A DNA stretch of 62,067 nt, counting the filler, from Hausera hauseri (Eukaryota), in assembly GCA_046269625.1 (NCBI GenBank). It is 9 parts of 9 records of this genome, joined end to end, with 100 filler letters (N's around TTAATTAATTAA, not from the genome) between each part and the next. Parts side by side here need not be neighbours in the genome. Positions count along the whole stretch, not along the records: positions 33,889 to 41,375 come from JBJURY010011900.1; 8 more parts are not named here. One strand, written 5' to 3'. Below are positions 4,201-55,030 of the stretch, piece after piece; position 1 is the first letter of the stretch, and every line of letters starts with the position of its first letter. The notes beneath the pieces are model-generated. The model saw only the letters and a program-made list of their open reading frames with translations, did not search any database and was not told the DNA's origin. A program made the position numbers and the translations under genes.

Positions 4201-6150
4201 TCTTTTTCTTCCACTCTCTCACCCTCTCTCTGACTCTTTCTCACTCTCTCTCCCTCACTCTCTCTCTCCCTATCTGTCTCTCTATCACTCGCACTCTCTC
4301 CCTCTCACTTTTTCCCTCTCTTGCTCCATTCCATTCTCTTTCTGTCTCCCTTATTCTCTCCATCTCTCTCTCCCTCACTCTCTCTGTCTCGCTCTCTCTG
4401 TCCCTCTATCTCTCTATATGTCTCTTTCTCCCTGTCTCTCCCCACTCTCTCTGTCTTTCGCTCTTTCTCTCGCTCTATCCCTATCCGTCACTCTCTCACT
4501 CCCTCTCCCTCTGTCTGTCTGTCTCTATATATCTCCCTCCCTCTCTCCCCCCTCATTCTCTCTGTCTCTCACTCTATCCCTCTATCGCTCTCTATCTCTC
4601 TCCCTCTCTCCGTCTCTCTCCCTCTCTCTGTCTTTCTCTCTGTATCTGTCTCTCTCCCCTTCTCTCTCTGTTTCTCTCCCAATCTCCCTGTCTTTTTCTC
4701 TATCAATCTCTTTCTCTCCCCTCTCTCTCCCTCTAACTTTCTCCTTCTCTCTCGCTCCGTCACACTCTATTTCTGTCTCCCTTACTCTCTCCGTCTCTCT
4801 CCCTCACTCGCTCTGTCCCACTATCTCTCTCTCTATGTCTCTCCCTCTCTCTCTCAATCTCTCTCTACCTCTCGCTCTCTCCCTATCTCCTTGTCTTTCT
4901 GTCCGTCTCTCTCTATCCTTCACTCTCCCTATCTCTCTCTCCTCCTCTCTCCCCTCCCTCTCTACCACGCTCTATCTCCTCTCTCTCCCTCTCTCCGTCT
5001 CCCGCCCTTCTCTCCGTCACCCACTCTCGCTCTCTTTCTCTCTGTGTCTACCTCTTTCTCCTTCTCTCTCTGTTTCCCATCCACTCTCTCTATCTTTCTC
5101 TATCAATCTCTTTTTCTCTCCCTCTCTTTCCCCCTCTCTCCCTCCCTCTCTCTCCCCTCTCTTTCTTTCTCCCACTCTCTCTGTCTTTTTCGCTCTCTAC
5201 CTCTCTCTCTCACTATCTCCCTCTCTCTCCCTGTCTCTCTTTATCCTTCTCTCACACGCTCTCTCCCTTTCTCTCTTTCTCACTCCCTGTCGCTCTGTCT
5301 TTCTGTCTCTCCCTCTCACTCTCGTACTCTCTCCCTCTCTCTCTGTCTCTCTCCCACTCTCACTCGCCGTCATTCTCTCACTCTCCCTCCCTCTCTCTCT
5401 CGCCCTTCCTCTATCTCTTCTTCCCCTGTCGCTCTCTCTCCCTCTATCTCTCTGGCTTTCTCCCTCTCTCCCTATCTCTCGCTCTCTTTCTATCTCTCTC
5501 TAACTCTCTCTGTCTCCCTCACTCTCTCCGTCTCTTTCACTCTCCCTCACTCTCTCTGTGTCGCTCTCTATGTCCCTGTATCTCTCTCTAAGTCTCGCCA
5601 TTTCTCTCTCAATCTCTCTCTACCTCTCTCTCGCAATCTCCCTCTCTCTCTCCGTCTCTCTCTATCCTTCTCTCTCTATCGCTCCCACTCTCTATCTTTG
5701 TCTCTCCCTCTTCCTCTCTGTCACTCTCTCTGCTTCTCTGGCCCTCTCTCTATTTATCTCGCTCTCTTCATCTTTCTCTACTTCTCCTTCTCTCTCGCTC
5801 TCTCTCCCTCACTCTCTCTTTCCCTCTCTGTCTCTCTCTCCCTCTCTACAACTCTCTATCTCCACCTATCTCCCTCCCTCTTTCTATCCCCCTCTCTCGC
5901 TCTGTGTCTCTCTCTCCCTCTTTGTCTTTCTTTCGCTCTCCGTCTCACTCCTCCCTTTCTCTGTGTCTCTATCTCTCCCACTCTCTCTGTCTCTCTACCC
6001 CTCTCTCTGTCACTCTGTCACTTTCTCTCTCTCACTCTCTCCGTCTCCATCTCTCCCCCTTCCTCACTCTCTCAGTCTCGCTCTCTCTCCCTCTCTCTTT
6101 CTGTTCCACTCTCTCTCACTCCCTCTCTCTGTCTTTCCCTCTTTCTCTCA
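1290..6150. repeat. About 4.9-kb degenerate (CT)n polypyrimidine tract with internal duplications
   Basis: Overwhelmingly C/T on the + strand. Longer words recur, e.g. TATCAATCTCTTTCTCTC near 2370, 2490 and 4700, and GCTCTCTCTCCCTCTATCTCTCTGGCTTTCTCCCTCTC near 4023 and 5431. Confidence 0.97.
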
Positions 6151-6419
6151 AAGGAATACGGTACTTAACAGCCAAGCCCATCGAGGAAATCTCGTTTCGA
6201 GACCTTAGAACCTTGGGCTTTTGTCCCGAATATCGGTAAATCGTTGAAGAAGCGGTGAAGTTCTTACATCAGCCACAAGGATGGATGGACGGAACGGATC
6301 AAATGCATCACACATAACTGATTAAAATAAAGAATGATCCCCACCTTAGCTTTGAAGAAATCAAATTTGTTAAAACGTTACTAGATGCAATAGCTCCATA
6401 TTCAAAAGGTAACAACGAA

Positions 6420-7140
6420 ATGTATGAACTAGCGCTGCTGATAGTGGAAATGGAGGAAATTAATGACGAGAAACTAAGGCAATTGTTGCAGCAGATACAG
6501 CAAGTCGAAGAAACTTGCATTAAAACAAAACAGAGAACGATAAGGTTAGATGAATTAACTAAAGAACCCGAAGTCTATAAAAACAAATATACCTTTACAG
6601 AGGCACAAAAGGCGGACAATTCACAATTCGTGCAAAGATGGCTAAGAGATGTCGCTTCGGAACTAAGAAACTGTCAAGAACAAGGACTGATTCCGACCGA
6701 AGAATTATGTTCGTTGTTAACCCTGCTACACCCAACTTCTGCTAATGGACGCTGTTTCCGGACAACGAAGATGGTCCAATTGCAACAAATACTACAAGAA
6801 CTCAGAAAAACCATATGGACCGCAGGTGTGGATAGGCCAACTGATGCACCGTCAAGGGACTATGGACTGTCAGATAATGCGAATGAACCAGAATTGGAGG
6901 CATATTTAGATGGAGTGATTGCCGAAAACCCGAGAACTCCCATACGATTGAGGGAAACAGCGGTGTACCCTTCGGACCAAAAATTCAATGTGGGAATGCT
7001 TCTGGACCCATTTAATTAAGCTAATTAACGTAAACCTCACCGAGACTCGATTAAGACAGTTAGTCCCCACTCTAAATAGATTAGCCAACAAAGGTATAAT
7101 TTATAGTGTGGCATCTAAGCTTTTAATTAAAAATATGCTA
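6420..7140 (+). pseudogene. Gag-like region of gypsy copy 1
   Basis: First ORF of the element (6420..7019, helical and charged), in the same frame as ORF 7146. Assigned mainly by position. Confidence 0.55.
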
Positions 7141-7166
7141 AAATCTTGAAGGAAAAGGCCGAGGAG

Positions 7167-7382
7167 ACGATCATAGTAAAGATAGCATCTGACTGGATGG
7201 AAGAAAGGGAACATGAATTTACTACGCGCTCCCTTGTGAGAGATGTATTATTATGGATAAAGAGCAATGGATACACCCATGAGCTAAACTACAGACTTTA
7301 TTTTAGAGGAAGAATACTAGACAAATTAGAATTATTAGTAGAAGTCGAAATTATTCCGGGTGAAGTAAACAGGATAGTGGTA
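7167..7382 (+). pseudogene. Ubiquitin-like domain within the gypsy polyprotein
   Basis: TIIVKIAS..EHEFTTRSLVRDVLLWI..NYRLYFRGRILDKLELLVEVEIIPGEVNRIVV follows the Ubl pattern RLIF.G+.L....L....I..G. No C-terminal GG. Confidence 0.6.
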
Positions 7383-8116
7383 ACAATTCCTACCGACGAG
7401 ACAAAAGAAGAAGCCATAAGGAAGGCAAAAGTAGAACAGTGGGTAGGACGAATCATAGAAGTTCAAGACCCAGCAATGTATTTTGAATATCTACAAACCA
7501 ACGAAGACAAGAAACAATACAATAAGAATCTAGCGCCGACCAGTAAGGTCGCACCAACTGTAATAAAACAGAAGCGTTCCATCGGTAGACCACAGAAACG
7601 GGAGAAGAAATCAATTATAATGGAGACTTAATTAGAGAATTGAGGCAAATGTCCATGGCAACCTTCAGCACCAATGACGAAGAACTAAAGAAACTCATGG
7701 AAAAATTGATACGGATAGTGAAGCACCCTAGTCTCGGTGGCGGCAAACTGGACGAAAAAGAAAAGGCTATATTTAACGCATCCAAAACTATGAAAAGTTT
7801 TTGCTATAAATTATCCAGTAGTACCTTAAGCGATGAAATGGCAATCGAGGAAATTATTATATAGAACACCGTAGAGGAATAAATGAAAGCGTTGCTATTT
7901 TTGGCCGTTAAAATCAATCCGGCCCGAGATAACGAATTCAATAAGGCCCTTAGCTTGGTGAGAAAGGCTTCCAGGTAACTACCACGAGAAATGAGTTGGC
8001 CTAAATTATTTGAAAGAGAAGAGGAAGGGCAAAATAAGTCTTTCCTTGGCAATAATAGAGTTGAAGACTTGTTACGGAACGTAACCGGAAATAATAGAGA
8101 AAACGAGTCAAACTGA

Positions 8117-9945
8117 ATAATTAACTCCTTAACCATGATGATGCTAATAAGGCAGATAGGTGCCGTTACAGTTTATGACTGTGACAAATTTAGACTCGTC
8201 AGAGATGCTCATTAATGGACTTAGAAGTGTGTGAAGACGCGAGACCACATAAATTAGAAACAAAAGAGAAAAATTACGTGCTATATCAACAACGCGAACT
8301 AGTTACCTCACACGGAGTAAAATATGTGTTGCGACGATCTCGCAGCATTTTCCATTGTGGGCTGGTACATGGACACTCATCAATAATCAAGCCAACAACC
8401 CCACCAATTCCGATGAATTTAGAATGTCAGCATTGTAAGCAAGCTAGAGAGATAGGCAGAATAAAATGGGACGGCATAAAACTGGAAATGCAGCAAGGGA
8501 AAATAATCAGAGTATATAAAGTAGCAGCAGGAAGGCTAGACATTCACACCGGACATTGTTATGGTGCAGAATACAATACTGGGAAAGGATTAGAGTCGAA
8601 CATCGTAGTGGTAGATTTGTACGAAACTGAAATGCACCTACAGAAGGCGATGTTCCATAGCGTTACTAAGCTTTACACAGAAAACCACAAGTGCCACATT
8701 CAGGATGGCACATGCTACTTTCGGAATTCTATAGTAATTTGGGAACCCCCGACTAAGACCGATTGCAACTTTATTAGAATTAAAGAGCTTAAGTTCAATG
8801 AGACGACCGGAAAGCGATACATAAGTAATGCGGAAACCAACTCCAAAACACGAGAAGATGTAGCCGAATAACCCACACCTATTACATTGATTTCGGATAC
8901 TCATGGATTAAAATTCGTGAAGAAAGACGCGCTCACGAGATGCGATATCATAGTGTATGCCACAAATTACGAAGCATTCTTTATAGCTGCGACAGAAATA
9001 AACGCCAGAACATTTAAGCTCGAGACTCAAGACATTCGAATTGAGGATTATCTAAAAAACAGAGACGACTATTTCTACTATAAAGGGCAAACGGGAATAG
9101 CTGAATTGTATCACCAGATGATAACAAATGGCTGCAAATTACACTTGACGGTTATGAGAATTAAACTGCCTTTAATATATGCTAACCCCGAACTAGCATC
9201 ACCAATAATTCCAATGAAAAAAGGCGTTTTCCGACGAGTAACAGGAGAAGTCCTACTGACCTATGAATGTAAAAAAAGGATGTACCCATTAACGTGGAAG
9301 AAAAGAGGTGTATACAAGAGCTCCCAGTGATATACCAAGACGTACCGAGATTAGTAACACCAATTACCAGAGTGTTGTTGGCAAACTCTACCAAACCGAC
9401 AATCCTGAGAGACTACAAGACCAGCTTAGGCGAACCAATGTTCAGACGTAGCGAAACCGATTGAGTAAGTTTACCAAACGGCGGTATAACTACGCCGCCC
9501 ACCAAATTAACCGGAATAAACTTAATGAAAGGGATAACCGATGATAAATTTCAAGATACGGCCGCAAAGGGTATTTACCGACCAAAGGAAGTAGATGCGT
9601 TCCGACAATTTCTCTCTTTCCCTTGTCAGAGCACACATGAATTAAACAGAGAAATGCACACAATACTAGAGGACTCACGTTACCAAACGAAGTGGGAATC
9701 TTTACTTGGCGTCAACTACTACAAAAGGGTAACTACGGAAATATTGTACAAAATTTGGGAAAGATTTCTGGTATTCGGACAAGCCGCATCGGGGTTCCTA
9801 GCAATTTACTTTTTGATTCAGCTGGTAAAAGCGATAATTTAAGCAATCATAAATGGATATGAGATATTCACCTTGACAGGATTTTCGTGACAAATTTTAA
9901 CGGCCATTATTACACCCTTCGGCAAATTTTTAAAGGCCTGTGAAG
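8117..9945 (+). pseudogene. Chuvirus-like (class III-type) envelope glycoprotein, copy 1
   Basis: Hydrophobic signal followed by VYDC, LYQQ, FHCG..GHSSI, AGRL..HCYG, C..QDGTC..W, CKL, GEV..YEC, C..ELPV, TPITRVL, GIY, FP. Then IWERFLVFGQAASGFLAIYFLIQLVKAII and a second hydrophobic stretch. This is the motif order of chuvirus-type G proteins. Confidence 0.85.
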
Positions 9946-10474
9946 AAAGTAGATGGAAAGCAGAGATAGAACGTCATGTGGGCTACCACAATCGGAACCG
10001 TAAGAGAAGGCACATATTCAACTATAAGAAAAAATTTATAAATACAGAAATACGGAGAAATAATTCTGACAATGTCGAGCCTAAGGGAGGAGACGCCATT
10101 CCCCAGTAGAACATACACAAAACTACTCTGTTATGAAACTACCTTTGCCAATAATGCCTCCACCGGCACCTATATATGAAGATTGCGAGAAACAATCCAT
10201 GAGTTTGTGCCAGATAGACACCTATCGAAAACCGTTTAGTCTAGAGGATCCCTGTGAAGGAACTAAACACTACGGGATATTGCGTAAGATTCACGAAACG
10301 GAAAGAACGGCTGCCCCACATCGCCGCTTAGCAGTCGACGATCACGGTATAATCTATGCACCTAGAATACTTAGACCAAACGAAAGGCAGTCAACATTTA
10401 CCGGAAGCCGTGAAACACACCATCTTAGAAAGCAAGGAATCCAGCCGCCAGTTAGAAAATAGGAATTAGAAAAC

Positions 10475-11526
10475 GTGAATAGTGCGAATAACGAACTATA
10501 CCCAATTAGAGAGTTAAGACAATTAACCGATCAGCCAGTTGGAACCACTAAAGTTACCATCAACGGCTACAAGGTGTCCACGATACGACACCCCCGAATA
10601 GCACGAAGTTATTACGGTACGACAATCGAAGGTAGGCCCTTCGCAAGAATTCAATTAGAATATTGGGAAGTTTACGCACTGATAGATACAGGATCCAAAA
10701 TATCGCTGATAAGGTATGATTCAATACCACAATTCCTACGGAAACAATTATATCGACCTCCCACAACAGACCCAAGAAGTGTCGGAGCCTTCGGCCAATT
10801 GCTAAAAGCAAGTTCCGATGGAGACAAGAAAATCGTATAATGGGACAATCTTTTCATCATGAATTTTCAAGAATGGAACAATTAATGGATGATGTAGTAT
10901 TGGGATGCGATCTGTTGAGACAACTACCCAACATAGCGATAGATTTAAATGCAGGGAAATTAATAGAACTTGGTCCAATAAAAGGAGTTAAAACCACTAA
11001 AGACAGAAAATTTGCAGAGGTGTGGATTCCCGTGGATGAAAACGTACCGCCGAGAACCGAAATACTAATATATGCTCAGATACGTCAAGATGACGATCAC
11101 CCAGTATATTTTGAGCCAAATGAATCGCTTAATCCGCACATTGTGCTCAGTAACGTTTTGACAATAGTATCAACGGATCGCGTGCCAACCAGATTAACGA
11201 ATAACGCACCAACCCCGATCAAACTCTATGCCAATACCACTTTGGGACACACGTATAGAGTATCATCAATTACTATCGAAGAGAAACCGTACAAAGGTGC
11301 CGAATTTCCACCCAAAGTTGAGATTAAATTTTTACCGGAATCATATTGTCGATTTTACGATTTACTTTGTCGTTATATTTCGATTATCGCGAAAGATGAA
11401 GAAGATATTGGCCGAGCCAAAACCTTAAGACTCACGATTCCACTTAAGAAAAAGCCTGGGTCCAACGATGAAATAGATTTAGAGGATCAAAAAATGCCGA
11501 AATTGTACCCCCTCCACACTTGCTAA
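10475..11526 (+). pseudogene. Aspartic protease and post-protease region, copy 1
   Basis: VYALIDTGSKISLI followed by VVLGCDLL (retropepsin DTG and ILG.D motifs); one frameshift near 10800-10840. Confidence 0.9.
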
Positions 11527-12735
11527 GAACGGAGATAACCAAGGAGGTTGAACGAATATTAAAGGCCGACATAATTAGACCAAGCTACCGATCTTGGTAC
11601 TCACATATACTCATGGTTAAGAAGAAAGTTATCGCCAAGCACCGATTTTGTATCGACTATCGAGCGTTAAACACACTTATGATGAAAGACTCTTTCCCAT
11701 TACCATCGGTAAGGGAAGCTCTGGATAGGCTTTCTGGAGCTAAATGGTTCACAACACTTTATTTACAATCCGGATATTGGCAAGTAGAGATAGAGGAAGA
11801 AGACCGTTATAAAACTGCATTTAAGACACACGACGGTATATATGAATTTAACGTCATGCCATTTGGAATAACTACTGGACCAGCCATCTTTACCCACATG
11901 ATAAACAAAATGCTAATGGGACTGAAACATGCGTTCGCCTACTTGGACGACGTCATGATTGGTCAAAAACGGAAGAGGATCATTTAAAGGATATTGAGGG
12001 TACACTCATGAGACTGGAGCAGGCTGGATTGAAACTGAATCCCAACAAGTGCAAATGGGCTCAGAATGCCGTGTCGTACCTAGGACATATAGTTGGAGAA
12101 GGAGGGTCGAAGCCGGATAAATCATGATTAAGTAAGATATCGGACTGCATGGAACCCCAGAATCAAAATGAATTAAGACACAGGTTATGGTTATGTGAGT
12201 ATTATACTACATATGTACCCGTTAACTCAAAGATAAACGCATCCTTGTACCGCTTGCTTACAAAAGGGATCAAATGGAAATGGACCGATGTCGAACAAAA
12301 AGCTTTCGATGAAATTAAGATGATTCTAACTAGCGAATCCGTTTTAAGATATCCCGACTTCAACCTACCATTCGTAATCAAAACAGACGCCAGTAAGGAA
12401 GGCATCGAATATGAATTAGCTCAGAAACGAGAAGATGAGGAGCTAGAACATCCGATCGCATATGGAGGGCGCTCTCTAAAGAAAGATGAAAAGAACTATT
12501 CTGTAACGGAGTTGGAAACGTTAGCGGTGAAGGAAGCCCTGCGACATTTTACCGTGTAAGTCTATTGACAGAGAATTGTAATCGTCACTGATCACACAGC
12601 GGTCACGACCTTGAAGGGTAGAGTAAATAATCCAACCTGTAGATTTAACAGATGGATCAAGAAGATCTCACGTTACAATATTGAATTCCAATACAAGCCC
12701 GGAAATAAAGATGTCGATGCCGATGCATTATAGAG
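11520..12735 (+). pseudogene. Reverse transcriptase and RNase H, copy 1
   Basis: RT motifs RFCIDYRALN, LQSGYWQV, KTAF, MPFG, AYLDD. RNase H motifs TDAS, YSVTELETLAV, TDH, DADAL. Confidence 0.95.
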
Positions 12736-12766
12736 ACTTAAAACTAAAACAAGCACGGTTACGGTA

Positions 12767-14090
12767 ATGAGGAAAGCCCATCTCGAAGACTTAGTAGAAA
12801 GACAACGGACTCTCACACTGGGTAAGGCATGGAAGATTGCTGTCGAGCAGAGGAAAGACAAAGTTATACAACAAATTGTCGAGTTCGTTGATACCAACAA
12901 AACACCAAAGGGTCATCAGTTACGGAAACACGTACGACGACATGGTCACAAATACTGCGCCGCAGGAGATTTGGACCACGAAAATGTGTTGTACTACGAA
13001 CGAAAAGGACGAAAATTAGTCGTCATACCAAAAATATTACGTGCGTAAGTACTAATTGCCGAACACGACTCATACCTAGCCGGACATATATCATGAAAGA
13101 AGACATTGGAAATAATATTAAATAAATATTATTGGCCGAGCATTTACGTCGACGTGAGAAATTGGGTGAATGCTTGTGAAGTATGCGCAACCAAACAGAG
13201 AAAAGTGAAAAACTACATCACCGAACTGAAACCCATTAATGTGACGGATAGACAAATGCAGGCAATGTCCATGGATATTGTAAAACCATTGCCTACGACT
13301 CACAAAAACAACAAATACATTTTGACCTGTGTAGATAGATTGACTCATTTCGTCGAGCTTATAGTGTTAATAGGCCAAAAGGCCGAGACTTTGGCAGAAG
13401 TAGTAGTTCGGAAGAATATTTGCAGATACGGACCGCCTGAACGAATTTTGATAGACCGAGGCAAAAACTTTACGAGCAAATTGTTCGAAAAAATTACCGA
13501 AATTTTCGAGACTAAACGACTAACTACCACAGCTTATCATCCACAATGTAATGGAATGGTTGAACGGATGAACGCAACAGTTATACGAGTCTTATCGACA
13601 GTAATCGCAAAAGACCAGAGAGATTGAAATAAGTTCTTAGAAGGTACACAGTTTGCCATTAATACTACTCTACATCCTGCGACACGATTCACTTCGTTTT
13701 TCATGATGTACGGCAGAGAAGCTGTACTACCTACAAATTTAGAACTGATCCCATACACAATAAGAACGGAAGATTTAGAGCAAATTTTGTCGAAGTATTG
13801 CAATTGAGATTACACAAGTGTTGGAAAATAGCCAAGGAATTATCTAGGGAATATTAGGAACAAATCAAGAAGCAATTCGACAAGAAGGCGAAACCACACG
13901 ACCTAGAACCAGGAAACTGGGTTTACGTACACTATCCAGTGGCAAAGAAAGGCACATATCTCAAACTTACTAGGACAGGCAGAGGACCTTATGAGGTTAC
14001 CAAAACTACACCAACCACGGTTTATATAAATAAAAACGGCAAGGAAGAGGTCGTATCGATTCAGGGTGTAGTTAAAACCGAGATATGATA
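12767..14090 (+). pseudogene. Integrase, copy 1
   Basis: H..GH, YYWP, CEVC zinc finger; SMDIV, IDRG, YHPQCNGMVER core; GPY. Confidence 0.93.
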
Positions 14091-14169
14091 AAGTAAACGC
14101 TGCAATCTGCGTTATAGCATAGCAAAATCGGAATATACGAACAGAGAAAAGAAAACATCGTCCATAACG

Positions 14170-14883
14170 GCTAGACCGATATCGTATGTGCAAATCGCTT
14201 CATATGTACCGAAGGTGAGGTCGATAACGCTAACCGAAAAACTACAATATGCGGCAAGACGGAAGGATATCCAAAACTTGCAATCACTTAGAGTGGACGA
14301 TATGGATTAGAACAAACTTTGTGCGTGGTTCGAAGCAAGTGAACCTATTCAGAGCCATGTGAATTTTCAAATAATATTTGTAACTAGATCCACGATGAGA
14401 ACATGCGATTTTCCGTATGGAATTCATAAGAAATGTTGCGATTTGGACTTTGAACGAACCTACTGATACAGGTTTCAAATGTTCTATTATAATCAGCCTG
14501 GAGCCCAAGCCTATATAATTACTGAATTTTTAATAAGAATGCCTCAACGAAATAGCACGAATCAAGCTAAGATGGACGAGGTAGTCCGAAATACTGACCC
14601 GTTTAAAAGGTTCTTAGATTATAATATTACTGGGATTTCCAAGGACTTTAAGCACCAATGTATTCGAATTAAAACCAACGTGGAACTGCCAGAAAACAGA
14701 CAAATTTCTGTCCGATGTATATTACTGAATGCCTAGACTCCTATTCCGGAGTATTGTTATCTGGACCGACGACTACCTACTGTGTGTTGTGAACTGCAAC
14801 TAGGACAAAAGTATTAGTTACAACTCGATTTGTACAATACGTACCCCGGAGAACGAAGCACTTATTTAAGGGGATACCGTCCA
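14170..14883 (+). pseudogene. Post-integrase Cys-containing ectodomain, copy 1 (cut by contig end)
   Basis: Same reading frame as the integrase C-terminus. Homologous to 40125..41160 (MRTCD.PYG, QMFYYN.PGA, TDPFK..LDYNI, ELQLGQKY). Confidence 0.75.
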
Positions 14884-14983: not shown

Positions 14984-15392
14984 AAACTTTCTAATGGCGA
15001 TTGTCAGGAAACGAAAAAGGAACTTGCTCAGTAATCAGCAGCAGCAAAATCGATGTTAAAAAGGCAAAATGCTATGATTGGAATACTTAAACGAAAATCA
15101 AAACCATCGTGTCAAACACAGACATTTTACAGACACGAATTTTTCGCATGTATGAAATGCATTTTCTGCAAACGCCCGTACTGATTTCATTGAATGATCC
15201 CGTGTCTCTGTGCGCCCAAGTACAGCTATCGTGTAAAACAACTTTCAGGTGAAAATTTGGACGAACTTTCTGGTGCTCTACATCAATTAAACGTGGATTT
15301 AAAGTTGAACGAAACGACCGTGCAACAGCAATCTATGGTTTTACCAGCTCAGAAAACGAAATTGTTTGATTTTATCGGTCGCGAAATTTCTA

Positions 15393-30200: not shown

Positions 30201-32470
30201 TAAGCATCTGTAATAGTTAGATTGTTTAATTGTCGATAATCGCCACATGGCCTATAGGTTTCATCTTTCTTTACCACTACATGGAGAGGAAAAGCCCACG
30301 GTGAATTCGATCTCCGAATGATTCCAGACCATTCCAGTTCATTAAATTCCTGTTCCACAGCTTTACCTCTGCGTGGCGACAAGGATCTGACCTTTTGCTT
30401 GATCGGCCTCTGATGCTCTGTTTCTATGTGATGATAAGTTGTGGATGGAAGCTTGAAGTTGACGTCCCTTGTAACTATGCGAAAGCAAGACGTTGTGACG
30501 TATAATTTAAGATTGGAGTCTAGGCACAAGAATGAATGAGGCATGTCATTAAATAGAACAGCTCCAGTGATTGATGAAAAGCAACTGGCATCGCTACTGT
30601 CGACGCCTAATTTGGATTTTTGTTTCAGAATAGATTTATGATCGTCGTTCATAATTGAAACATTACCGACTTTATCGGACATTTTTATAGATGACGAAGC
30701 GTTCAATAGGTTCATAGATTAGTGCAGTGAATTGCTCGCTATTGAGTTCCTGATATTGAGCTCCTGCTTACAAGACAGCTGTGTTTGCAATCGACCAATA
30801 GATCATTTGCGGCAAGAAAATCTGAGCCTATTATGAGAGATTTAATGTTGGCCACGTGGAACTTCCAGACAAACTTATCTGGTAAGTTGGCAAAAGTGAA
30901 AGTCAGTTCCGTGGTTCCTACAACATGCAACGGTTGACCACTGGCAGTAAAAAGCGATTTACAGGAAATCATAGTCGATTTAGAAACGAAGGATAAGGGA
31001 AGGAGCGAAAAGGCAGCTCCTGAGTCTACAAGGAAGTCGATATGTGAAGTATCTCTGCATAATAGTACAGATTTCAACAGAAAGACTGCAGAGGCGGTGT
31101 TAAAACGGCCAGAAGATTGAACGATATTGTCTGCGCCAGAATGTGCCGTAAAATCTGGCGGCATTATTAGTTTTTTGAAGGTTTTGGATAAAAGGAAGAA
31201 GAGGACGAAAAGCGAGGAGATTTATCTTTGTAATGTTTACAACCAGGCACGCATGACCTAGCCTGTTAATAAAACTTATTGTGGTAGACACAAATAGGAT
31301 TTTCCACAGCGCACCGTTCACCGTAGAAACGACAACCCAAAAAGCACTTCCTAGCATCCCTTCGCAGTCGCATATGATAGAAACAAGTCATGCGTCTGGC
31401 AGGTGAAATGGGTCGAGCACAGTGTCTGGAAATGCTTCTCTCCCTTCAAGGTCTGGTTTCTCTTCGTCGAGGCCCATTAAGATTATTTAATTGGGTAATA
31501 ATGGCCAAAATCGATTGCTGTAACTCGTTAAACTTTTGCTGCATCATTTGCAATTGTTGTGAAAATAAAGTGTTATCTGTGTGTGGTGTGTGAGCAGTTG
31601 GTGCAGCTACTGGTTGTGAAATATTAGATTGCAAAATGTCAAAACTTTTGTCTGCCAATAAAACAAGCTTTTGAAGGGCCGTTGGGTCGTCCACTACCGT
31701 GAGCAGCGCTCTAATGGAGGTTGGCAAAGATGAAAGAAAATACCGACGAATAAGATCAGCATTGTTTATGGGAGTGACGCCCATGGAGCTCAGTTGCGAG
31801 ATTGCAGTTTTAAGGAAATCCGACGGTTTTTGATTTCCAATTGCGTGTTCATTAAAGTATTTCTGAATTATGCTGTCAATAGAAAGGTCGGTGATATGCA
31901 GAACTGATTCATAAAACATATCATATGGGCTTAAATAAGTAAGCATATCAGCAAGATTGTTGATTTGCTGCTTGATATTAGTTGGAAGTGATATCAGCAA
32001 ACTGTTCGCTCGCAAAAAGGAGTCTGTGATATAATTGGCTTTAAGCCATTGCAAATGGAACTTAACCTATTGCGACTCGAATTGGTTTTATCAAGAAAAA
32101 ATCTGTGCAAGGAAGATTTGGATATGTAGTTGGTGTGGGGTCGGCAGGACGACGACCAAATCTGGTCTTGGTGGGGTTTTCCACATACGAGGGATCGGGA
32201 TCCGATCCACCCCGTAGGCAAAAGTGAAGAATGAGGTGGATAATTTTGGCGGAAAATGCAGAAAACTGGTCATGGACATTAAGTATAGAACCATGATGCG
32301 AGAGATAAAAGTCCGATGAGTTGAGGTGAGAAGATAGATGTGCGTGAAGATGATGAGAGGTATGAGTGTTTAGTACATAGAAGGTATGAAGGTGTGTATT
32401 ATTGAGGAAGATAAATAGGGAAAAGGGACGCAGCGCAGCGGCGGCGGTCACGCTCGACTCCTCACCCAAA
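27223..32470 (-). mobile_element. CsRN1-clade-like gypsy element, near full length and decayed: gag 31330-32100, PR 30739-31164, RT 29813-30715, RH 28998-29555, IN 28050-28990, PPT 27476-27489, 3' LTR starting 27475
   Basis: Gag IGNQKPS..FLSSLP..LADK with CHCC box CFYH-x9-C-x3-C. FLVDSGA, RPCGDYR, YIDD, TDAS, YSTFDRE, VHLDLVGPLP. G-rich PPT followed by TGTGGTGC. Confidence 0.92.
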
Positions 32471-33888: not shown

Positions 33889-36800
33889 AAATTTTGGTAA
33901 AAAATATCATAGAGGAATTGAGAAATGTGTTGCGATATCTGGTCATTAAAACAAATCAAAATCGGGAGAATGAATTAAATAAGGCCACTAGTTTGGCAAG
34001 AAGGGCTGCCAGGAAGTTACCTCGAGAAGTGAACTGGTCTAAACTATACGAAAAAGAAGAAGAACATCAGAGTGTATTCCCCTTTGGTAACAATAGATTT
34101 GGAGACCTGTTACGAAATGTAATCGGAAATCGCAGGGAAAATGAATCGAATTTGTTAATTAACTTTCTGACCCTGATGATACTAACAAGGCAAATGGGCG
34201 CAGTTGCAGTATATGACTGCGACAAGTTTAGACTTTGGCCAGAAATACTCATTAATGGATTTGGAAATGTGCGAAAACGCGAGGCCCCACAGATTAAAAA
34301 CAAAAGAAAAGAATTATGTATTATACCAGCAACGCGGATTAGTTACCTTAGATGGAGTAGAATGTATGTTGCGACGATCTTGCAGCATCTTCCATTATGG
34401 GCTGGGATATGGACACTCTTCAATAATCAAGCCAACAATTCCACCAATTCCGATGAATTTAGAGCGTCAACATTGTAAGCAAGCTAGGGAGAAGGGAAGA
34501 ATAGAGTAGGACGCCATGGAATTAGAAATGCAACAAGAAAAAATAATCATGGTGTAGAAAGTAGATGCAGGAAGGTTAGATATGCACAGTGGGCATTGTC
34601 AAGGTGCCGAATACGATACCGGGAAAGGATTAGAGTCGAACGTCGTAGTAGTAGACTTTTATGAAACCGAAATGCGCGTACAGAAGGTGATGTTCCATAG
34701 CGTTACTAAGCCTTACACATAGAACCATATGTTCCACATTCAGGATGGCACATGTCCGTTTCGAAGTTCTGTAGTAATTTGGGAACCACCAACCAAGACC
34801 GATTGCAATTTTATCAGGATTAAAGAACTTAAATTTAACGAGACGACAGAAAAACGATATATAAGTAACACAGAAACTAATTCGAAAACACGGGAAAATG
34901 TTGCCGAACAGTCCACACCTACTATACTCATCTCTGATACTGACGGACTGAAGTTTGTGAAGAAAGATGTAATCACGAGATGCGACGTTATAATGCATGC
35001 TACTAACTATAAAGCATTTTTCGTCGCCGAAACGGAAATAAACGCCCGAACGTTTAAACGCGAGACTCAAGACATCCTGATCGAGAATTACTTGAAAAAC
35101 AGAAATGACTATTTCTACTACAATGGACAGGCCGGAATAGACGAGATATACCACAAGATGATAACCAATGATTGCAAATTATATTTGGAAATATATATAC
35201 GCCAATCCTGAGTTAGCGTCACCAATATCTCCGATGAAGGAAGGTGTTTCCTGACGAGTAACCGGAGAGGAAGAGAAGAGGTGTATACAAGAACTCCCAT
35301 TGATATATCAAGGCGAATCCAGATTATTAACACCAATTACCACAGTGTTGCGGCAAACGCCACCCAACCAACAATTTTGAGAGACTGTAAAACGAGCTTA
35401 GGAGAGCCGATGTTCAGTCGCAGCGAAACCGACTGGGTAAGCTTACCAAACGGTGGTATTATTGCACCACCTACCAAGCTGACAGGAACAAACCTGATAA
35501 AAGGGAATAACCGATGATAAATTTCAAGATACAGTCGCAAAAGGTATCTACCGATGTAAAGAAGTAGAGGCGTTTAGTAAATTCCTTGCTTTTCCCGTCA
35601 ACGTACGCACGAATTAAACACAGCGATACATACCATACTAGAGAACTCGCGCTATCAGTCAAAATGGCAGTCATTACTTGGCATCGGCTATTATAAGAAG
35701 GTAACCACAGAAATATTGTACAAATCTAGGGAAGATTCCTGATATTCGGGCAAGCCGCATCTGGATTTCTAGCAATATACTTTTTTATTCAATTATTAAA
35801 AGCCATAATTCAATCACTCATAAATGAATACGAGATATTTAGTTTGACAGGATTTTTGTGCAAAATTTCAACGGCTATTATTACACCTTTCGGCAAATTC
35901 TTGAAGGCTTATGATGACAGTAAATGGAAAACAAATGTAGTGCGACATGTTGGATATCATAATCCAAAACGGAAAAGACACACTCGATTACAGGCAAAAA
36001 TTCATAGATAGTAAGACACAAAGAAATAATTCTGATGATGACGAGCCTAAGGGAGGAGATGTCATCTCCAGGCCAACCCGGCATAAAAACTACTCGGTTA
36101 TGAAATTACCACTGACAATATTGCCGCCAACGGCACCTATATATGAAGACTGTAAGAAACAATCGGTGAGCTCGCACCAGACAGACGTTTATTGGAAGCC
36201 ATTTAACCTAGAGGATCCTTACGAAGGAACCAAACGCTACGAGGTATGGCGTAAAATCCATGAAACGGAAAGAAAGACTATTTTACATTGCTGCTCAGCG
36301 GTCGACGATTACGGTATAATCTGTTCACCTCGAGTATCTAAACCAAATGAAATGCAATCGATATTTACTCGAAGCTGTAAGACACGAAATCTCCAAAACC
36401 AAGATGTTCAGCCGTCAACTAGATACCAAAGAGTAGAAAATTCGAACGGTATAAATAACGAACTATACCCAATCGGAGAACTGAGACAGGTGGTCGACCA
36501 GCCAGTCGGAACTACTGAAGTCCCCATAAACGGCTACAAGGTATCCACAGTCCGACAGCCCCGTAAAGCACCGAGCTATTACGGTACGGTAATTGAAGGA
36601 AAATTCAATCGTGAAAATTCAATTAGAAAATTGGAATGTATATGCCTTAATAGACACAGGATCTGAAATATCACTGATAAAATACGATTCGATAGCGTAA
36701 TTTCTACGGAAACAATTGTGTCCACCTCCCTCAACAGACCCAGGCAGCATCGGAGCTTTTGGACAGTCATGGGAAAGTAAATTCCGTTGGATACCGGAAA

Positions 36801-39800
36801 TTCACATAATGGGACAATTTTTTCTTCATGAATTCTCAGTAATGGAGCAATTAATGGACGATAAGGTGTTGGGGTGTGACTTATTGAGACAACAACCTAA
36901 TATAGCAATCGATTTCAATGCAGGCAAGTTGATAGAACTTGGCCCAATAGAAGGAGTCAAAACCACCAAGGATAAAAAGTTCGGAGAAGTGTGGATCCCA
37001 GTAGATGAAAACATACCGCCCCGGACAGAAGTACTCATATATGCCCAAATACGTCAAGATGATGACCAGCCAGTATATTTTGAGCCGAAAGAATCGCTTA
37101 ATTCGAACCTTGATTTCAGTAATATTTTGACAACAGTATCGACAGGTCGCGTGCCGATCAGAATAGCAAATCACGCACCGACTCCTATCAAACTGTACGC
37201 AAATACCACGTTGGCACACACGTACCGAGTATCATCAATCACTATAGAAGGAAAACCCTATAAGGGTGCCGAATTTCCACCCCACGTCGAGACTAAATTT
37301 TCGCCCGAATCCTATTGTCGATTTTACGAATAACTTTGTCGTTATAGTTCAATTATTGCGAAAGATGAAGAAGATATTCGCAGAGCCAAAACTTTAAGGC
37401 TAACAGTTTCACTTAAGAAAAAGCCTGAATCCAACGACGAAATAGATCCTGAGGATCAAAAAATGCCGAAATGGTATTCTACTCCACATTCATTAAGACC
37501 AGAGATAACCAAGGAAGTCAAATGAATTTTAAAGGCCGACATAATTTGACCAAGCTACAGATCTTGGTATTCACCGATACTCATGGTTAAGAAAAAGGGT
37601 ACCGCTAAGCACCGATTTTGCAACGATTATTTGGCGTTAAATACGCTTATGCTGAAAAACTCTTTTCACTTACCATCGGTAAAGGAAGCTTTGGACAGAC
37701 TCACTGGAGCTAAATGGTTCACCACGCTCGATTTACAATCTGTATACTGGCAAGTAGAGATATAAAAAGAAGATCGTTACAAAAGGGCATTTACGACACA
37801 CGACGATATATACGAATTCAATGATATGCCATTTGGAATAACTACCTAACCGGCCATCTTTACCCGCATGATGAACAAGATGCTGATGGGATTAGAACAC
37901 GCGTTCGCCAATTTAAATGACGTTATGATTGCGTCAAAAACAGAAGAAGATCATTTAAAAGACATCGAAGGTACACTCATGAGACTGGAGTAGGTTGGAT
38001 TAAAACTGAATCCCAAGAAATGTAAATGGGCCCAAAACGATGTATCGTATCTTGGCCTTATAGTTGGAGAAGGAGGGTCAAAACTGGATAAATCATTATT
38101 GAGTAAAATATCGGATTGTATGGAACCTCAAAATCAGAAAGAATTAAGACACTGGTTAGGGCTGTGTGGGTATTATGCTACTTACGTACCAGATAATGCA
38201 AAGATAAACGCACCTTTATATCGCTTATTAAAAAAGGGGATCTAATGGAAGTGGACTCACATCGAACAGAAAGCTTTTAACGAAATGAAAAAGATTCTAA
38301 CTAGTGAACCTGTTCTGAAATATCCCGACTTCAACTTGCCGTTCATAATCAAAACATACGACATTAAAGAAGGTATCGGATATGAACTGGTCAAGAAACG
38401 AGAATATGAGGAATTGGAACACCCGATCGCATACGGAGGACGTTCCCTGAAGAAAGCAGAGAAGAACTATTCTGTTACGGAGTTAGAAACATTAGCGGTA
38501 AAGAAGGCAATGCGACATTTTAACGTGTACGTCTATGGACAAAAAATTATAATTGTTATTGACCATAAGGTAGTTACGACCTTAAAGGGTAGAGCGAATA
38601 ATCCAACCTGCAGACTTAACAGATGGATCGAGGAGATCTCACGTTATAATATTGAATTCCAATACAAACCCGGAAGTAAACATGTTGATGCCGACGCATT
38701 ATCGAGACTTAAAACCAAAACAAGTGCAGTCACAGTAATGAGGAAAGCCCACCTTGAGAATTTAGTGGAGAGGCAACGGACTCTTACGCTAGAGAAGGCA
38801 TTGAAAATTTCTGTTGAACAAAGAAAAGACAAGATTATACACCAAATTATCGAATTTATTGATACTAACCAAACACCAAAGGGTCATCAGTTACGAAAAC
38901 ACCTACGTCGTTATTGTCACAAGTATTAGGTTACTGGAAATTCGAATCACGAAAATGTGTTGTACTACGAACGAAAAGGACGAAAACTAGTCGTTATACC
39001 GAAAGGATTACGAGCGGAAGTGCTCATGGCCGAACATGGCTCATACTTAGCCGGACACGTCATGGAAAAAGACATTGGAAAGGATTTTAAATAAATACTA
39101 TTGGCCGAGTATTTACATCGATGTGAGAAATTGGGTAAATGCTTGTGAGGTGTGCGCAACCAAACAAAGAAAAGTGATAAACTATATTGCAAACTTAAAC
39201 CTATTAGTGTGCCGGACAGACCCATGTAGACTATGTCCATGGACACCGTAGGACCATTACCTACAACCCACAAAAACAACAGATACATTTTGACCTGTGT
39301 AGACCGATTGACTCATTTCGTCGAGCTTATAGCTCTATTAGACAAAAAGGCCGAGACCTTGGCAGAAGCGATAGTCCGAAAAATCATTTGCAGATATGGG
39401 CCACCCGAACAGATTTTGACAGACCGAAAAAGAAATTTCACGAGCGAATTGTTCGACAAAATTACCCAAATCTTTGAGATTGAACGACTTACTACTAAAG
39501 TTTATCATCCCCAATGTGATAGGATGGTTGAACGAATGAACGCAACCGTTATAAAAATCTTATCAACAGTAGTCGCAAAAGACCAGAAGGATTGGGATGA
39601 GTTCTTAGAAGGTACGCAGTTTGCCATTAATACTACTCCACATCCTGCGACAGGATTCACTCCATTTTTTATGATGTATGGAAGAGAAGCTGCGCTTCCC
39701 ACAGATTTAGGACTGATCCCATACACAACGCAAACGGAAGATTTAGAAAAAAACTTTGCCGAAGTATTGCAAATGAGGTTACATAAGTGTTGGGAAATAG

Positions 39801-41180
39801 CCAAGGAGTTGTTTAAAGAATATAAGGAACAATTCAAGAAGCAATACGATAAGAAGGTAAAACCACACGATCTGCAACCCGGAAATTGGGTTTACGTACA
39901 CTACCAAGTGGCATAAAAAAGGCACATCTCTTAAACTCATCAGCAGGGCAGATGACTTTATGAAGTTACTAAGGTTACACCAACCACAGTTTGCATAAAT
40001 AAAAGTGGCAAGGAAGAGGTTATATCAATTCAAAGAGTAGTTAAGATAGAATTAACACCGAACAAACGATATAATTTGCGTTGAAGCCAAACAAGTAAAA
40101 AAAGAAGACGTCATCTATAGTAACGAGACCGGTATCATATGTACAAATAGTCCTGGCTTTATCGTTAATCGCTTCGTATGTACCGACAGTAAAGTCAATA
40201 ACTCAAACTGGAAAATTACAATATGCAGCAAGACGGAGAAATATCCATAACTTACAGTCACTTAAAGTGTACCATATGGATTGTAGAAAGCCATGTGCTT
40301 TGTTCGAAGCAAGTGAGATTAATCCGGACCATGTAAAATTTCAAATAATATTTTCTAGTGAAAATACGATGAGAACATGCGATCTTCCGTATGGAGAACG
40401 TAAAAAATGTTACGAACTAGATTTTGAACGAAATTATCGATACAACATTCAAATGTTTTACTATAATCTACCCGGAGCCCACACCTACATAGTTACTGAT
40501 TTTTTAATAAGGATGCCTAAACGAAATGACACTGAGATAATTCAGAATACTGACCCGTTCAAAAGTCTTTTGGATTATAATATTATTGCATTTTATAAAG
40601 ATTTTAAGAACCCATGCATTCGAATCGAAACCAAAATAGAACTACCGACAGGCAGACAGATTTCTGTCCGATTTATACCATTAAATACTTTGACTCCTGT
40701 TCCTGAGTATTGTTACCTAGTTCGAGGATGACCTACTGTGTTCTGTGAACTGCAACTAGGACAGAAGTATCAGTTACAACTCGATCTGTACAATATATAC
40801 CCTGGAGAGAAAAGCATCTATCTGAGAGGATATTGTCCAAAAATCGGAATATGGGAGCTTCCACCTCTAACCACTACGACGAAATCGTCTACTGTTTCGA
40901 GCACAACTTTCGCCACTACGATTGCTACCTTGGATCGACTGGCCGAAGAAAAACCAAGTAGTATACCAGTTAAGATTTTTGCAAAAAGTGACAAGATTCT
41001 ATTCTACGTTGAGGAAACGTTAATTTACGACGTTGAAATTGAATTTCGTACTCTGTATACCAATCAAATCGTAACCTTAAGGAAGAATAGTCCGGAAACA
41101 CAATGCCGATCATTACGACCGTAACATGACTATATAGTCAGAATCACTACACAATGCGTGTGAAGATATAATTGAGAACG
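33889..41180 (+). mobile_element. Gypsy copy 2 (same family as 6150-14883): G 34150-35910, PR ~36600-36950, RT ~37480-38070, RH 38285-38710, IN ~38930-40080
   Basis: Collinear protein homology to copy 1 along the whole contig, with independent disabling mutations. Confidence 0.95.
40125..41160 (+). pseudogene. Post-integrase signal peptide, FN3-like repeats and Thr/Ser-rich linker, copy 2
   Basis: VQIVLALSLIASYVPTVKS signal-like segment. Repeats end ELDFERNYRYNIQM, ELQLGQKYQLQL and SLRP*HDYIVRIT (FN3-like L.P...Y.V.I). TTTTKSSTVSSTT linker. All in one frame. Confidence 0.65.
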
Positions 41181-41475
41181 GAAGTTCTAAATTTAAATAA
41201 GAAACACTTAAATTTAAATTAAGATTTCAATTTGGAATTGACTAAAAAATTTAATTAAATTTATTTAATTAAAATTTTAATGTAATATTGAAAATCTAAT
41301 TTAAATTTGGAAAATTTGTTTCAAAATAAATAATTTGGATTATAATAAAAATTTCTACTGGTGTTTACTTTTCAANNNNNNNNNNNNNNNNNNNNNNNNN
41401 NNNNNNNNNNNNNNNNNNNTTAATTAATTAANNNNNNNNNNNNNNNNNNNNNNNNNNNNNNNNNNNNNNNNNNNN

Positions 41476-48812: not shown

Positions 48813-51800
48813 TGTGAATATTCGTAAGCTAATGATACGATTCTCAAAGCGGGAGATCGGGACCCGCCTATGGATCGGACGCTACGGCAACGGACACCGG
48901 GCCGTGCCAAAACAAATAGGCCAAAGGGCACCGGCTGCCATGAGCACCACATCACCCCCTACCGTGGCAAAGTGAAAACTATAAAGATTAAAACAGGCGG
49001 AAAAAAGCGCTAAACGAGAAAGTGTATATGTCAGGTGGTCATAGTGTGGACAAGACGTTGGGTACATTCTATTGATTTTTCCCTGCTATATTTGCTGAAT
49101 GTGACTGCGTGTTTTGTTTTTATCCTGTGTTTGCTTGCAGAGTTTGAAGTTGGAGAAAAAAATATCGGCTTTTGTTGTGAGTGTTGTGTCGTGCGAAGAC
49201 GAGTCAAAAAGAAGAGAGGAAGAAGAAAGCGCAGTACGAAGAGAAATTGTGGGAGATTGGTGCTTGAAGGTGTTTAGGAAAGTGTTTGAAGACGAAGGAA
49301 TGATAAAAGGTGTAGTGGAAGATAAAGGAAAAGAGACAGAAGTTGGAATTGAATTGGGTGAAAGAGTGGAAGTGGAAGAAGAAATAGAAGTAGTTGTAGA
49401 GGCAGGAAGAGAGACAGGGATAGAAGCATATGAGGAGGAAGTTGCGGAGCGGAAATGAGAGGGGTAGAAGGCGATGTGTGAGGAGAAAGGGAGAAAGAAA
49501 GCGCCGAAGATGAGGAAGGTGTGGTAGGAGAAGGAGAAAAACAAAGAGAAGATGGCAAAGAGGTAAAAAACGGAAGAAAGCAAGAAGATGGAGAAGGCGA
49601 AAGAAAGTAGTTGGAAGGTGGTGTGCAAGAGGTTGGAATAATGAAAGGGGTGGATGGAGAGATTGGTGAAGTAGAAGTGGTGTTTGATGGAGGAAGTACT
49701 GTAAAAGGAGAAAGCAAGTTCTTATGAGGGGATGAAAGAGGTGTGAAAAGGCTTGACGGTGCAAAATCGGATGGGGAAAAATAGGCTAAATTGTGAGAAA
49801 TTAAAGTAGAAGTTTTTGGAAAGTGGATTAAGAAATTGAGCAGAGATGGAAGGTAAATTATTGGATTGCTGCGCATCGTGTAACAATGTTGGTGGAGAAG
49901 TGGTTTCGATGGGAAACGTGTCGTCAATGAAGAAACCGGTTTAGCGTTGTTCATGTGGACTGTTACTTCTTTGTCGTCTTTGAGTATGATGATGTTGTGG
50001 GAGTGTAAAAGAATTACTTTGTAAGGGCCGACATATTGAGATTGAAATCCACACGGCGTCTGATTCTTTAGCCAAACGAACTTGGCAGTATGTAAATCGT
50101 CGGGTATGCAAGGTTTATTTCCGTGTAATAGTCTACAAAATGAGTCTTTGCTGATCTCAACGAAGTGTTTCTGGGCCGCTTGTATGCTCTCGTCTGTAGA
50201 AGTATTGTCCAGCTCAGCCAGCTCGAATAATGGTCTGATTTAAGTACCAAATAATGCTTATGAAGGTGAACAGCCTGTAGAAGTGGATGGTGTGTTCCGT
50301 CAGCCAAGCAGAACGTACGGAAGGAGTGTAGTCCAACTGTAATTTGACTCAGCAAGGATTTTGAGAGACGTTTTTATAGTCTGGTGAAAGCGTTTGAGAA
50401 GGCCATTCGATTGAGGATGATATGGTACGTGTGAATGTGGTTAATTCCCAATCGATTGACACAAGCTTTAAACAGGTTGAATTTGAACTGTGGGCCTTGG
50501 TCCGAAATGATGTAGCGAGGTGATCCAAACCTGCTGATCCAAGTGCTGATGAAAACGTCTACGATTGTTTCTGTGTTGGTGCTCCAAAGCGAAACAGCCT
50601 CTGGCCATCGCGAGGAACGGTCCATCATTGTGAAGATGAACTGATTTCCATTGTCTAATGATAGTGGGCCTACAAGGTCAATGCGAACAGATTCAAAACG
50701 AGACGTGCAGGAAAAATGATACAGTGGTGGCTTTAAGTGCTTAGTAACTTTGTATTTTTGGCATGCCACATACTGCCTAACCCATGCCTGCACGTCATAG
50801 CGCATCGACGGCCATACTACTTGGCGTTGTAAGAGTCGAAAAGTAGCCTTGGCACCAGGATGGTGCAACGAATGGATGTTGTGGAATGCTTCATTTTGAA
50901 CCGATTCAGAAAGGATGACTTTAGGATTATTAGGTTTGGAAGTGTCAGAGGCCACACCGTCGATGGTTTTGCACGATTTAAAAGATTTAAGAATGTCAGG
51001 AGGTGGCTGGTTTTGCTGAAATTTGAACTGAGGAAAAAATGGTGTAAAATCAGTCGAGCTGACCGATCGGGACAATAAATCAGCTACTAAATTGTCGACT
51101 CCGTTTAGTTGTTTAATTACAAAATTAAATGTTGACAAATACGATATTTGCCTCTCCTGACATGGAGAAGGCGATTTCATGGTGAGAACTTGAAGAAAGA
51201 GCTTGTGGTCCGTTTGTATTGTAAAAGTTCGTGCAGTTAGCAGATGTTTAAAGTGTTTTACGACAAGGACCATTGCAAGCAATTCTCGGTCAAAGGTGGA
51301 AAATCTTTGCTCTTGTGCAGTGAATTTTCGAGAAAAGAATTCTAATGGTTCACGAGATCCATTTTTGGCTTGATGGAGGACAGCACCTGCAGCTGCTGTG
51401 GATGCATCCGTGGTTAAGAAAAGTTCTGCATGGGAGTCGGGATAGGCTAGGATTTGCACGGTTTTGAATTATCTTTGAGGTGATCGAAAGCGTTGACTAG
51501 CTTGGCGGTCCATTGAATAGGCTATTTTTTCTTGCCAGAGCTTAGTGATGCTAATGAAGCGGTTAGAGTGGAGCAGTGTGGAATATACTTATGAATAAAG
51601 TGCAAGATTCCGAGTAAAGAACGTATCTCTGTTGATATACGTGGTAGCTGTATGTTTTTGAGCTGTGTCATGCGCTCTGGATGAGGAAAATATCCGGAGG
51701 AGCTAATGACATATCTTAGGAAGTTGACCTTATGTCGAAAAAAAGAGCATTTGCAGAAATTAATTTGAAAGTTGTTTTGGTGCAAGCGCTGGTAGATTAA

Positions 51801-54808: not shown

Positions 54809-55030
54809 ATGGAAAAACAGATAATTATACACTACGATGGCCGATACTTCATAGCTGATGCAAGCGACACCCTGTCACATCTCAATCTAATCGAACTTAT
54901 CAAGGAAAAATTGAAGATCAAAAATGAATTCATGATGTTACACTGCGGGAGGCCGTTACGGACCAACGAAGAAGTGGAAAATTTAAAACACGGATCAACA
55001 ATTCAGGTGATGTTTCGACTGAAAGGAGGC
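54809..55030 (+). CDS. Ubiquitin-like domain ending in RLKGG
   Basis: 74 aa: MEKQIIIHYDG..LIKEKLKI..MLHCGRPL..LKHGSTIQVMFRLKGG (compare ubiquitin STLHLVLRLRGG). Confidence 0.85.

Follow-up and report, generated by a model that had tools for sequence, protein, structure and literature searches.

An element-borne gene for a predicted FN3-like surface protein downstream of integrase in a decayed Ty3/gypsy element of Hausera hauseri

Two copies of the element and the extra ORF that follows integrase

The window analysed here is a stretch of 62,067 nucleotides from Hausera hauseri (GCA_046269625.1), made up of several contigs joined by N spacers. Two copies of one retroelement lie on separate contigs, copy 1 on positions 1-14883 and copy 2 on positions 33889-41375 (JBJURY010011900.1), and, the contigs being joined by spacers, the two copies need not be neighbours in the genome. 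The copies are 78% identical over 7,071 aligned bases and share the gene order ORF1, gB-type glycoprotein, PR, RT, RNase H (RH), integrase (IN) and an extra ORF. Their features are given below; P0002 and P0003 are two database relatives of the extra ORF.

Copy 1
6150..8134, + strand: ORF1, in the gag position, with an abrupt start after a CT-rich simple repeat
8135..9960, + strand: gB-type glycoprotein, matched by PF24664 in two pieces (E 8.7e-11 and 1.5e-12)
10679..14085, + strand: PR-RT-RNase H-IN, with LIDTGS at 10679, YLDD at 11940, HHCC at 13064, rve, and GRGPY at 13978
14086..14112, + strand: junction, with two adjacent stops (14086-14091) and then S-K-R-C-N-L-R, in the frame of IN and the extra ORF
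14146..14883, + strand: extra ORF, repeats 1 and 2, with four stops, in frame with the IN tail

Copy 2
34152..35990, + strand: gB-type (Monjiviricetes_fusion) glycoprotein, with an internal signal-like segment and a C-terminal hydrophobic helix near 35766-35810
36647..38929, + strand: PR (LIDTGS at 36647), RT and RNase H, decayed; RT placed by alignment to copy 1
39051..40081, + strand: integrase, with frameshifts; rve core 39230-39916
40067..40084, + strand: IN tail motif RYNLR, then a stop (40082-40084), the extra ORF lying in a different frame
40099..41158, + strand: extra ORF, comprising a signal-like segment, three FN3-like repeats (predicted, the third on weak evidence) and an S/T-rich linker; stops at 40729-40731 and 41122-41124
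40141..40197, + strand: signal-like segment, a hydrophobic core and predicted cleavage region, from hydropathy and by eye
40249..40518, + strand: repeat 1, a predicted seven-stranded FN3-like sandwich; three Cys align to Cys in P0002
40570..40839, + strand: repeat 2, a paralogue of repeat 1 by shuffle test, with one stop inside
40870..40929, + strand: S/T-rich linker between repeats 2 and 3 (14 of 20 residues S/T)
40951..41158, + strand: repeat 3, broken and truncated, FN3-like on weak evidence from P0003
41159..41375, no strand: AT-rich high-copy repeat (16% G+C) that cuts copy 2 and lies outside the element

The Pfam domains RVP, RVT_1, RT_RNaseH/RT_RNaseH_2, Integrase_H2C2 and rve occur in sequence, giving the pol order PR-RT-RH-IN, and the GPY/F motif of the C-terminal part of IN is present as GRGPY in copy 1. 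An IN search among proteins of 400-2000 aa returned three matches at E <= 1e-30 from 840 candidates. These nearest long relatives are 31-36% identical, two of the three are named as gypsy-type pol, and none lists an fn3 domain; as no close relative is among them, the search is weak evidence on fused forms. By its predicted domains and their order, the element is a decayed Ty3/gypsy (Metaviridae) element with gag-env-pol order. Both copies are dead, carrying many frameshifts as well as stops. Over the 1784 codons aligned in ten hand-chosen in-frame segments, rather than the whole alignment, 36 stops were counted: 22 in copy 1 only, 14 in copy 2 only and none in common. No LTR-like repeat was seen in either contig; contig ends or repeats truncate both copies. 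The CT-rich simple repeat, 4.9 kb long (1290-6150), lies directly 5' of copy 1, and the element begins abruptly at its end. In run X1 the contigs over the AT-rich repeat at 41159-41375 add up to a very high depth, and 64 loose ends lie where this repeat starts.

ORF1 occupies the gag position, and its identity as a capsid protein is putative: it gave no significant Pfam match and no CCHC knuckle or motif. Part of it (7131-7631, + strand) has a ubiquitin-like look and a weak match to UBX (E 0.036, below the cut-off). The junction of ORF1 with env is open in copy 2, where the glycoprotein is joined in frame to the ORF1 tail through an internal hydrophobic signal-like segment. PF24664 matches the glycoprotein above the cut-off, in three pieces 5' of PR and in both copies. 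Entry by an attachment protein plus a separate fusogen had been proposed in an earlier, sequence-only reading of this DNA, and the gB-type glycoprotein upstream of pol provides the fusogen candidate. Between the glycoprotein tail and PR lies a conserved linker of about 170 codons (10085-10640 in copy 1 and 35980-36610 in copy 2, + strand; dN/dS 0.33), which has no Pfam match and could hold a structural domain.

The extra ORF is found 3' of IN in both copies, as that reading had placed it, and the Cys-containing repeats it described are borne out. The hydrophobic core VQIVLALSLIA occupies 40141-40173 in copy 2, with a best 9-residue hydropathy of 3.04, and the seven codons said to be deleted from copy 1 correspond to a 21-nt in-frame gap within this core. 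The extra ORF of copy 1 breaks off inside repeat 2 at the contig end, 14883, so that the S/T-rich stretch is visible only in copy 2. The T/S-rich stalk described in that reading corresponds to a short linker between repeats 2 and 3 of this copy. A membrane anchor is absent from both window copies for a similar reason, copy 1 stopping at its contig end and repeat 3 of copy 2 being cut at about 41159.

Other mobile elements lie elsewhere in the window. A second, unrelated gypsy family is present on two contigs that are 64% identical (26500-30700 and 49270-52340, both - strand) and has a long S/P/T-rich low-complexity tail 3' of its IN. A BEL/Pao-type gag at 54179-57059 (+ strand; DUF1759, E 1e-14) continues into two CCCH zinc fingers, not CCHC knuckles, and is preceded in frame by a ubiquitin-like stretch ending LKGG (by eye; no Pfam match). 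One contig carries dUTPase and protein-primed DNA polymerase B pieces at 15309-15863 (+ strand) and 18159-18857 (- strand), a pairing found in Maverick/Polinton elements. The BEL/Pao, gypsy and Maverick-like pieces on these other contigs suggest an animal host.

Fold, intact relatives and membrane topology of the encoded protein

A structural model of repeat 1, made from copy 2 with three aligned rows, has seven strands and moderate confidence (pLDDT 64). When it was compared with 48,161 chains, the best 50 rows had Z of 7.3-8.3 and rmsd of 2.3-3.1 over 75-89 of the 90 residues, where a Z near 8 may reflect a common arrangement only. FN3 domains are named in 10 of the 12 top titles; of the other two, one is the IL-6 receptor and one a Bacteroides DUF3244 sandwich. 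On this model we predict that repeat 1 is an FN3-like seven-stranded beta-sandwich. Foldseek, suggested beforehand as the check for FN3, did not return it, with no match at E <= 0.001 in the PDB or BFVD. Sequence searches of Pfam and the PDB with the extra ORF gave no significant match, and the Pfam fn3 model detected nothing in the window ORF or P0002 and scored P0003 at 13 bits against a cut-off of 25 (E 0.12).

Repeats 1 and 2 are paralogous, their alignment score being reached by 1 of 1000 shuffles in copy 2 and by none of 1000 in P0002, and repeat 2 is predicted to be FN3-like through this paralogy. Repeat 3 is not clearly related to either by sequence: its scores against repeats 1 and 2 were reached by 18 and 616 of 1000 shuffles in P0002, and by 618 and 255 of 1000 in copy 2. 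Weak evidence that it is FN3-like comes through P0003, whose first Atlas match scores 0.91 with 172 shared features and falls in FN3+TM clusters. The best Atlas score of P0002 is 0.88, and scores under 0.9 are leads only. A single-sequence model of the whole P0002 protein was poor (pLDDT 46, with repeats 2 and 3 both under 55), and its best Z of 6.3-6.5, to a Bacteroides DUF3244 sandwich, concerned repeat 1 only. Thus the three FN3-like repeats first described now stand at different strengths, the first by its model, the second by paralogy and the third, more weakly, by way of P0003.

When 1.84 billion protein representatives were searched with the extra ORF, two matches were found, both unnamed. 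P0002 is an unbroken protein of 479 aa (39% identity, E 7e-55), and P0003 has 189 aa (42% identity, E 6e-9); each comes from one contig, of 4,939 and 16,242 bases, respectively. P0002 has a hydrophobic N-terminus, three repeats, the same S/T-rich linker, a helix at residues 429-447 and a tail ending YDRIT, while P0003 has repeat 3, a hydrophobic helix at residues 142-160 and a tail ending YGRIT. The 19-residue hydropathy peaks near their C-termini are 2.26 and 2.95, respectively, and a Y-x-x-I tail is conserved in both. Searching proteins of 263-839 aa with P0002 returned only P0002 itself among 3,340 candidates, and no relative turned up in IMG/VR when P0002, the glycoprotein and IN served as queries. 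A JGI locus (L001), the one locus obtained from 197 pattern matches, was set aside as a chance hit, since tblastn did not match it to P0002 or P0003, nor did tblastx or blastn match it to the window.

A signal-like N-terminus, as originally proposed, is supported by the hydropathy of the core, which is kept in copy 2 and P0002 and partly missing in copy 1. The search for a TM or GPI anchor that had been recommended succeeded in the relatives, where P0002 and P0003 have a single C-terminal TM helix and a cytoplasmic tail, and not in the window, where both copies end before the anchor. Since P0002 contributes a TM helix and a short tail ending in Y-x-x-I, we predict that the extra-ORF family encodes type I membrane proteins, with the anchor seen in the relatives. 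This architecture, an FN3-like seven-stranded sandwich with a single TM segment and a short tail, is also that of FNDC5, FNDC9, class I cytokine receptors, LAR and Tie2. Identity to these proteins in structural alignments is 4-15%, with no significant Pfam or PDB sequence match, and we take the resemblance to FN3+TM type I proteins to lie in modelled architecture.

The Y-x-x-I pattern fits tyrosine-based sorting signals. Its presence in both intact relatives would suit a protein that acts in assembly or sorting, or in receptor interference, either organising the budding membrane or masking the entry receptor in cells that carry the element. Small TM accessory proteins are described for LTR elements in the available parts of PMC11952523 (sORF2) and PMC5408684 (rotifer ORF3 types). 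However, a large three-domain ectodomain under purifying selection exceeds the needs of sorting, and we consider such a factor improbable.

Selection on the extra ORF and its junction with integrase

The proposed dN/dS comparison of the two copies revealed purifying selection: the value for the extra ORF is 0.27 (95% bootstrap CI 0.18-0.42, 232 codons), against 1.08 and 1.01 in its shifted frames. Elsewhere in the element dN/dS is 0.10-0.12 for the glycoprotein, 0.09-0.11 for RT/RH, 0.24 for the IN core and 0.33 for the linker between glycoprotein and PR, all of these between-copy values, like that of the extra ORF, being raised by decay after insertion. Nucleotide identity of the copies is 75-78% in the extra region and 70-86% along the element. 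The extra ORF is A-rich and intron-free, with a base composition like that of pol (A 0.35 vs 0.36).

The extra region had also been expected in other family members, and further divergent copies were found in run X1, the sole run with the region. At least three further X1 contigs, among the 8 listed of about 6,500 pieces, cover 40829-41148 at 82-87% identity. Two X1 contigs are identical to copy 2 over 40015-40684 and 40756-41187; they place the copy 2 junction and 3' break in X1 as well but, as this run may be the source of the window itself, are not independent support. Other X1 contigs differ from copy 2 at its internal stop and at one IN frameshift, which are therefore private to it. One X1 contig spans 40044 to 40159 across the junction, with a side of 28 letters that is too short to count. 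Cover of the extra ORF in X1 is far below that of IN, where depth is no copy number.

We conclude that the extra region is one of the element's own genes and was maintained by purifying selection. An alternative is that it is a host FN3 gene or retrocopy that lay beside an insertion and was duplicated with it, or that it is a neutral passenger. P0002 and P0003, on one contig each, may lie outside any such element, and the low X1 cover could mean that many related pol copies lack the ORF, or that theirs is too divergent. Against this, purifying selection acted on the genes of the element and on the extra ORF alike as the copies diverged, an outcome that would not follow if the host had duplicated an insertion already dead; the ORF also adjoins the IN tail in both copies and shares the A-rich, intron-free composition of pol. 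The dN/dS values largely refute the host-gene alternative, which we hold to be very improbable. With high confidence, then, the ORF is predicted to encode an element-borne FN3-like surface protein under selection.

How this gene is joined to IN is less clear. The frame was said to continue from IN into the extra protein, and this holds for copy 1 only; RYNLR of copy 2 is followed at once by a stop, and the extra ORF there lies in another frame, a 16-nt indel separating the copies at 14127/40096. The stops at the junction do fall at different positions, as noted earlier, those of copy 1 (14086-14091) before the R.NLR motif and that of copy 2 (40082-40084) directly after it. Ancestral continuity had been argued from this difference and is somewhat more likely than not: none of the 36 stops is common to the two copies, but breaks at the junction are in excess. 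Three stops fall within about 25 codons where 0.5 would be expected (P 0.015, in a window chosen post hoc), and the junction pair of copy 1 is the only adjacent pair among its 22 stops.

These junction stops, together with the stop directly after RYNLR and the out-of-frame indel of copy 2, would also be expected if IN ended near R.NLR and the FN3-like protein were made as a separate gene, from a spliced or separately initiated message. The env of insect errantiviruses is expressed from such a message. P0002, recorded as a free 479-aa protein, has in-frame Met6 and Met10 of its own, and P0006, an ordinary pol, ends 13 residues past a similar RYPQR motif. The seven codons after the copy 1 stops give no clear coding signal, with two synonymous and two non-synonymous codons. 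Other observations count against separate expression. An in-frame ATG is absent from the stretch between IN and the hydrophobic core in both window copies, and in copy 1 one frame runs from R.NLR into the signal. In the six codons before the column of P0002 Met10, all four changes are synonymous third-position changes (P 0.012); with a seventh codon added, four of five are synonymous (P 0.045). The indel of copy 2 also has company in the glycoprotein region of that copy, where decay has left out-of-frame deletions of 20, 47 and 5 nt. The in-frame joining of the gB-type gene to ORF1 in copy 2, again by way of a hydrophobic segment, offers a parallel for fusion. We lean towards fusion of the FN3-like ORF to IN in the ancestor of copies 1 and 2, with a separate gene as an only somewhat less probable arrangement; the choice concerns expression, not function.

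Comparison with known systems and a possible role

Nematode elements are said to have a continuous gag-env-pro-pol frame and to carry further ORFs, encoding a small protein or a helicase. The order GAG-ENV-POL with a gB-type env has been reported in Nematoda, Bryozoa and Platyhelminthes, in a study that kept other ORF arrangements outside its search (PMC13524379, as partly available). The element described here resembles those elements in its Ty3/gypsy-type pol, in the glycoprotein upstream of PR-RT-RH-IN and in the placing of that glycoprotein between a signal-like segment and a TM helix. It differs from them, as they appear in the available part of that study, in having a second membrane-protein gene after IN; the word 'fibronectin' has no occurrence in the main text. 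An affiliation with Troyka was dropped, the part of PMC12440569 at hand describing no such arrangement. An FN3 protein in an LTR element was not found in the literature searched, which consisted mostly of titles and the starts of abstracts and largely lacked subscription journals. The gag-env-pol order with a gB-type env is already published, and what appears new against the literature searched is the added FN3-like protein gene after IN.

Surface proteins in comparable positions are known from two other groups. Atlas virus (Belpaoviridae) encodes a Gag-Pol-Env polyprotein of 2,828 aa with surface glycoproteins at its end, after Pol, and has two of them (GN-GC); according to the available part of its description, it differs in its BEL/Pao pol and in its class II phlebovirus-like pair, placed side by side with no FN3 protein (10.64898/2026.03.22.711591). 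Among crocodilian ERVs, CrocERV31 captured nectin3, which has three Ig-like domains, in place of env, and CrocERV29 carries KIT-ligand beside env, so that here too a host-type surface or signalling protein under purifying selection sits in or beside the env slot (PMC4299795, as partly available). These are vertebrate Retroviridae in which the donor gene is known (about 76% identity) and nectin3 replaces env (PMC4299795, same part), whereas the element here belongs to Ty3/gypsy, retains a predicted fusogen 5' of pol and has no donor among the sequences searched.

The captures in crocodilian ERVs, of KIT-ligand and nectin3, both under purifying selection in the part of PMC4299795 at hand, lend some weight to the idea that the FN3-like protein is a captured host receptor. 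Displayed on the producing cell, it would then imitate a cytokine or growth-factor receptor of FN3 type, acting as a decoy or in a dominant-negative way rather than in entry. Tandem Cys-containing FN3-like domains with a TM segment and a short tail would suit such a mimic, and the fold matches of repeat 1 include IL-6R, IL-9Ra, IL-12Rb1 and IL-10R1. The Atlas neighbours IL11RA and OSMR, at 0.86-0.89, point the same way, but at scores that make them leads only. Adhesion and matrix FN3 domains fit the fold equally well, however, and no host donor appeared among the 1.84 billion representatives, which contained just the two unnamed matches. On this evidence we judge a receptor mimic to be rather unlikely.

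We favour instead a likely role in attachment or adhesion, inferred from the modelled domains and their setting, as an FN3 fold by itself shows no function. The FN3-like protein would probably be the last part of one long polyprotein that threads through the membrane, with ORF1 in the cytosol, the gB-type fusogen in the lumen, Pol in the cytosol and the FN3-like ectodomain again in the lumen. Translocation would start again at the hydrophobic segment after IN, which would serve as an internal signal and carry the FN3-like domains into the lumen, from where they would come to lie on the surface of the cell or particle, anchored by the last helix. The Y-x-x-I tail could sort the protein to the membranes where fusogen and capsids gather. 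By means of the FN3-like domains, a particle or producer cell would then be held to a target cell, allowing the fusogen to act. Since bornaviruses, rhabdoviruses and baculoviruses have class III fusogens that act without a partner, a helper is not required. Taken as a whole, the account of an element gene for a type I protein with three FN3-like domains that helps a gB-type fusogen by adhesion or attachment is tentative, with chances a little under even. The stronger form, in which a single polyprotein containing capsid, class III fusogen, Pol and an FN3-like attachment protein crosses the membrane twice and so achieves a two-component retrotransposon entry, is speculative and unlikely. It would split receptor binding from fusion, as in herpesviruses and paramyxoviruses.

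Env-carrying Ty3/gypsy elements described so far have one surface protein. If the FN3-like protein serves as an attachment partner, separate genes would provide for tissue targeting and for fusion, and the way in which invertebrate retroelements find germ cells could be tested on a soluble, non-fusogenic domain. The flipped gag-env-pol order would also gain a use, since it would leave the slot after IN free for a second gene. Even if the protein is a decoy, a retrotransposon that retains a host-type surface receptor under selection would be a rare case.
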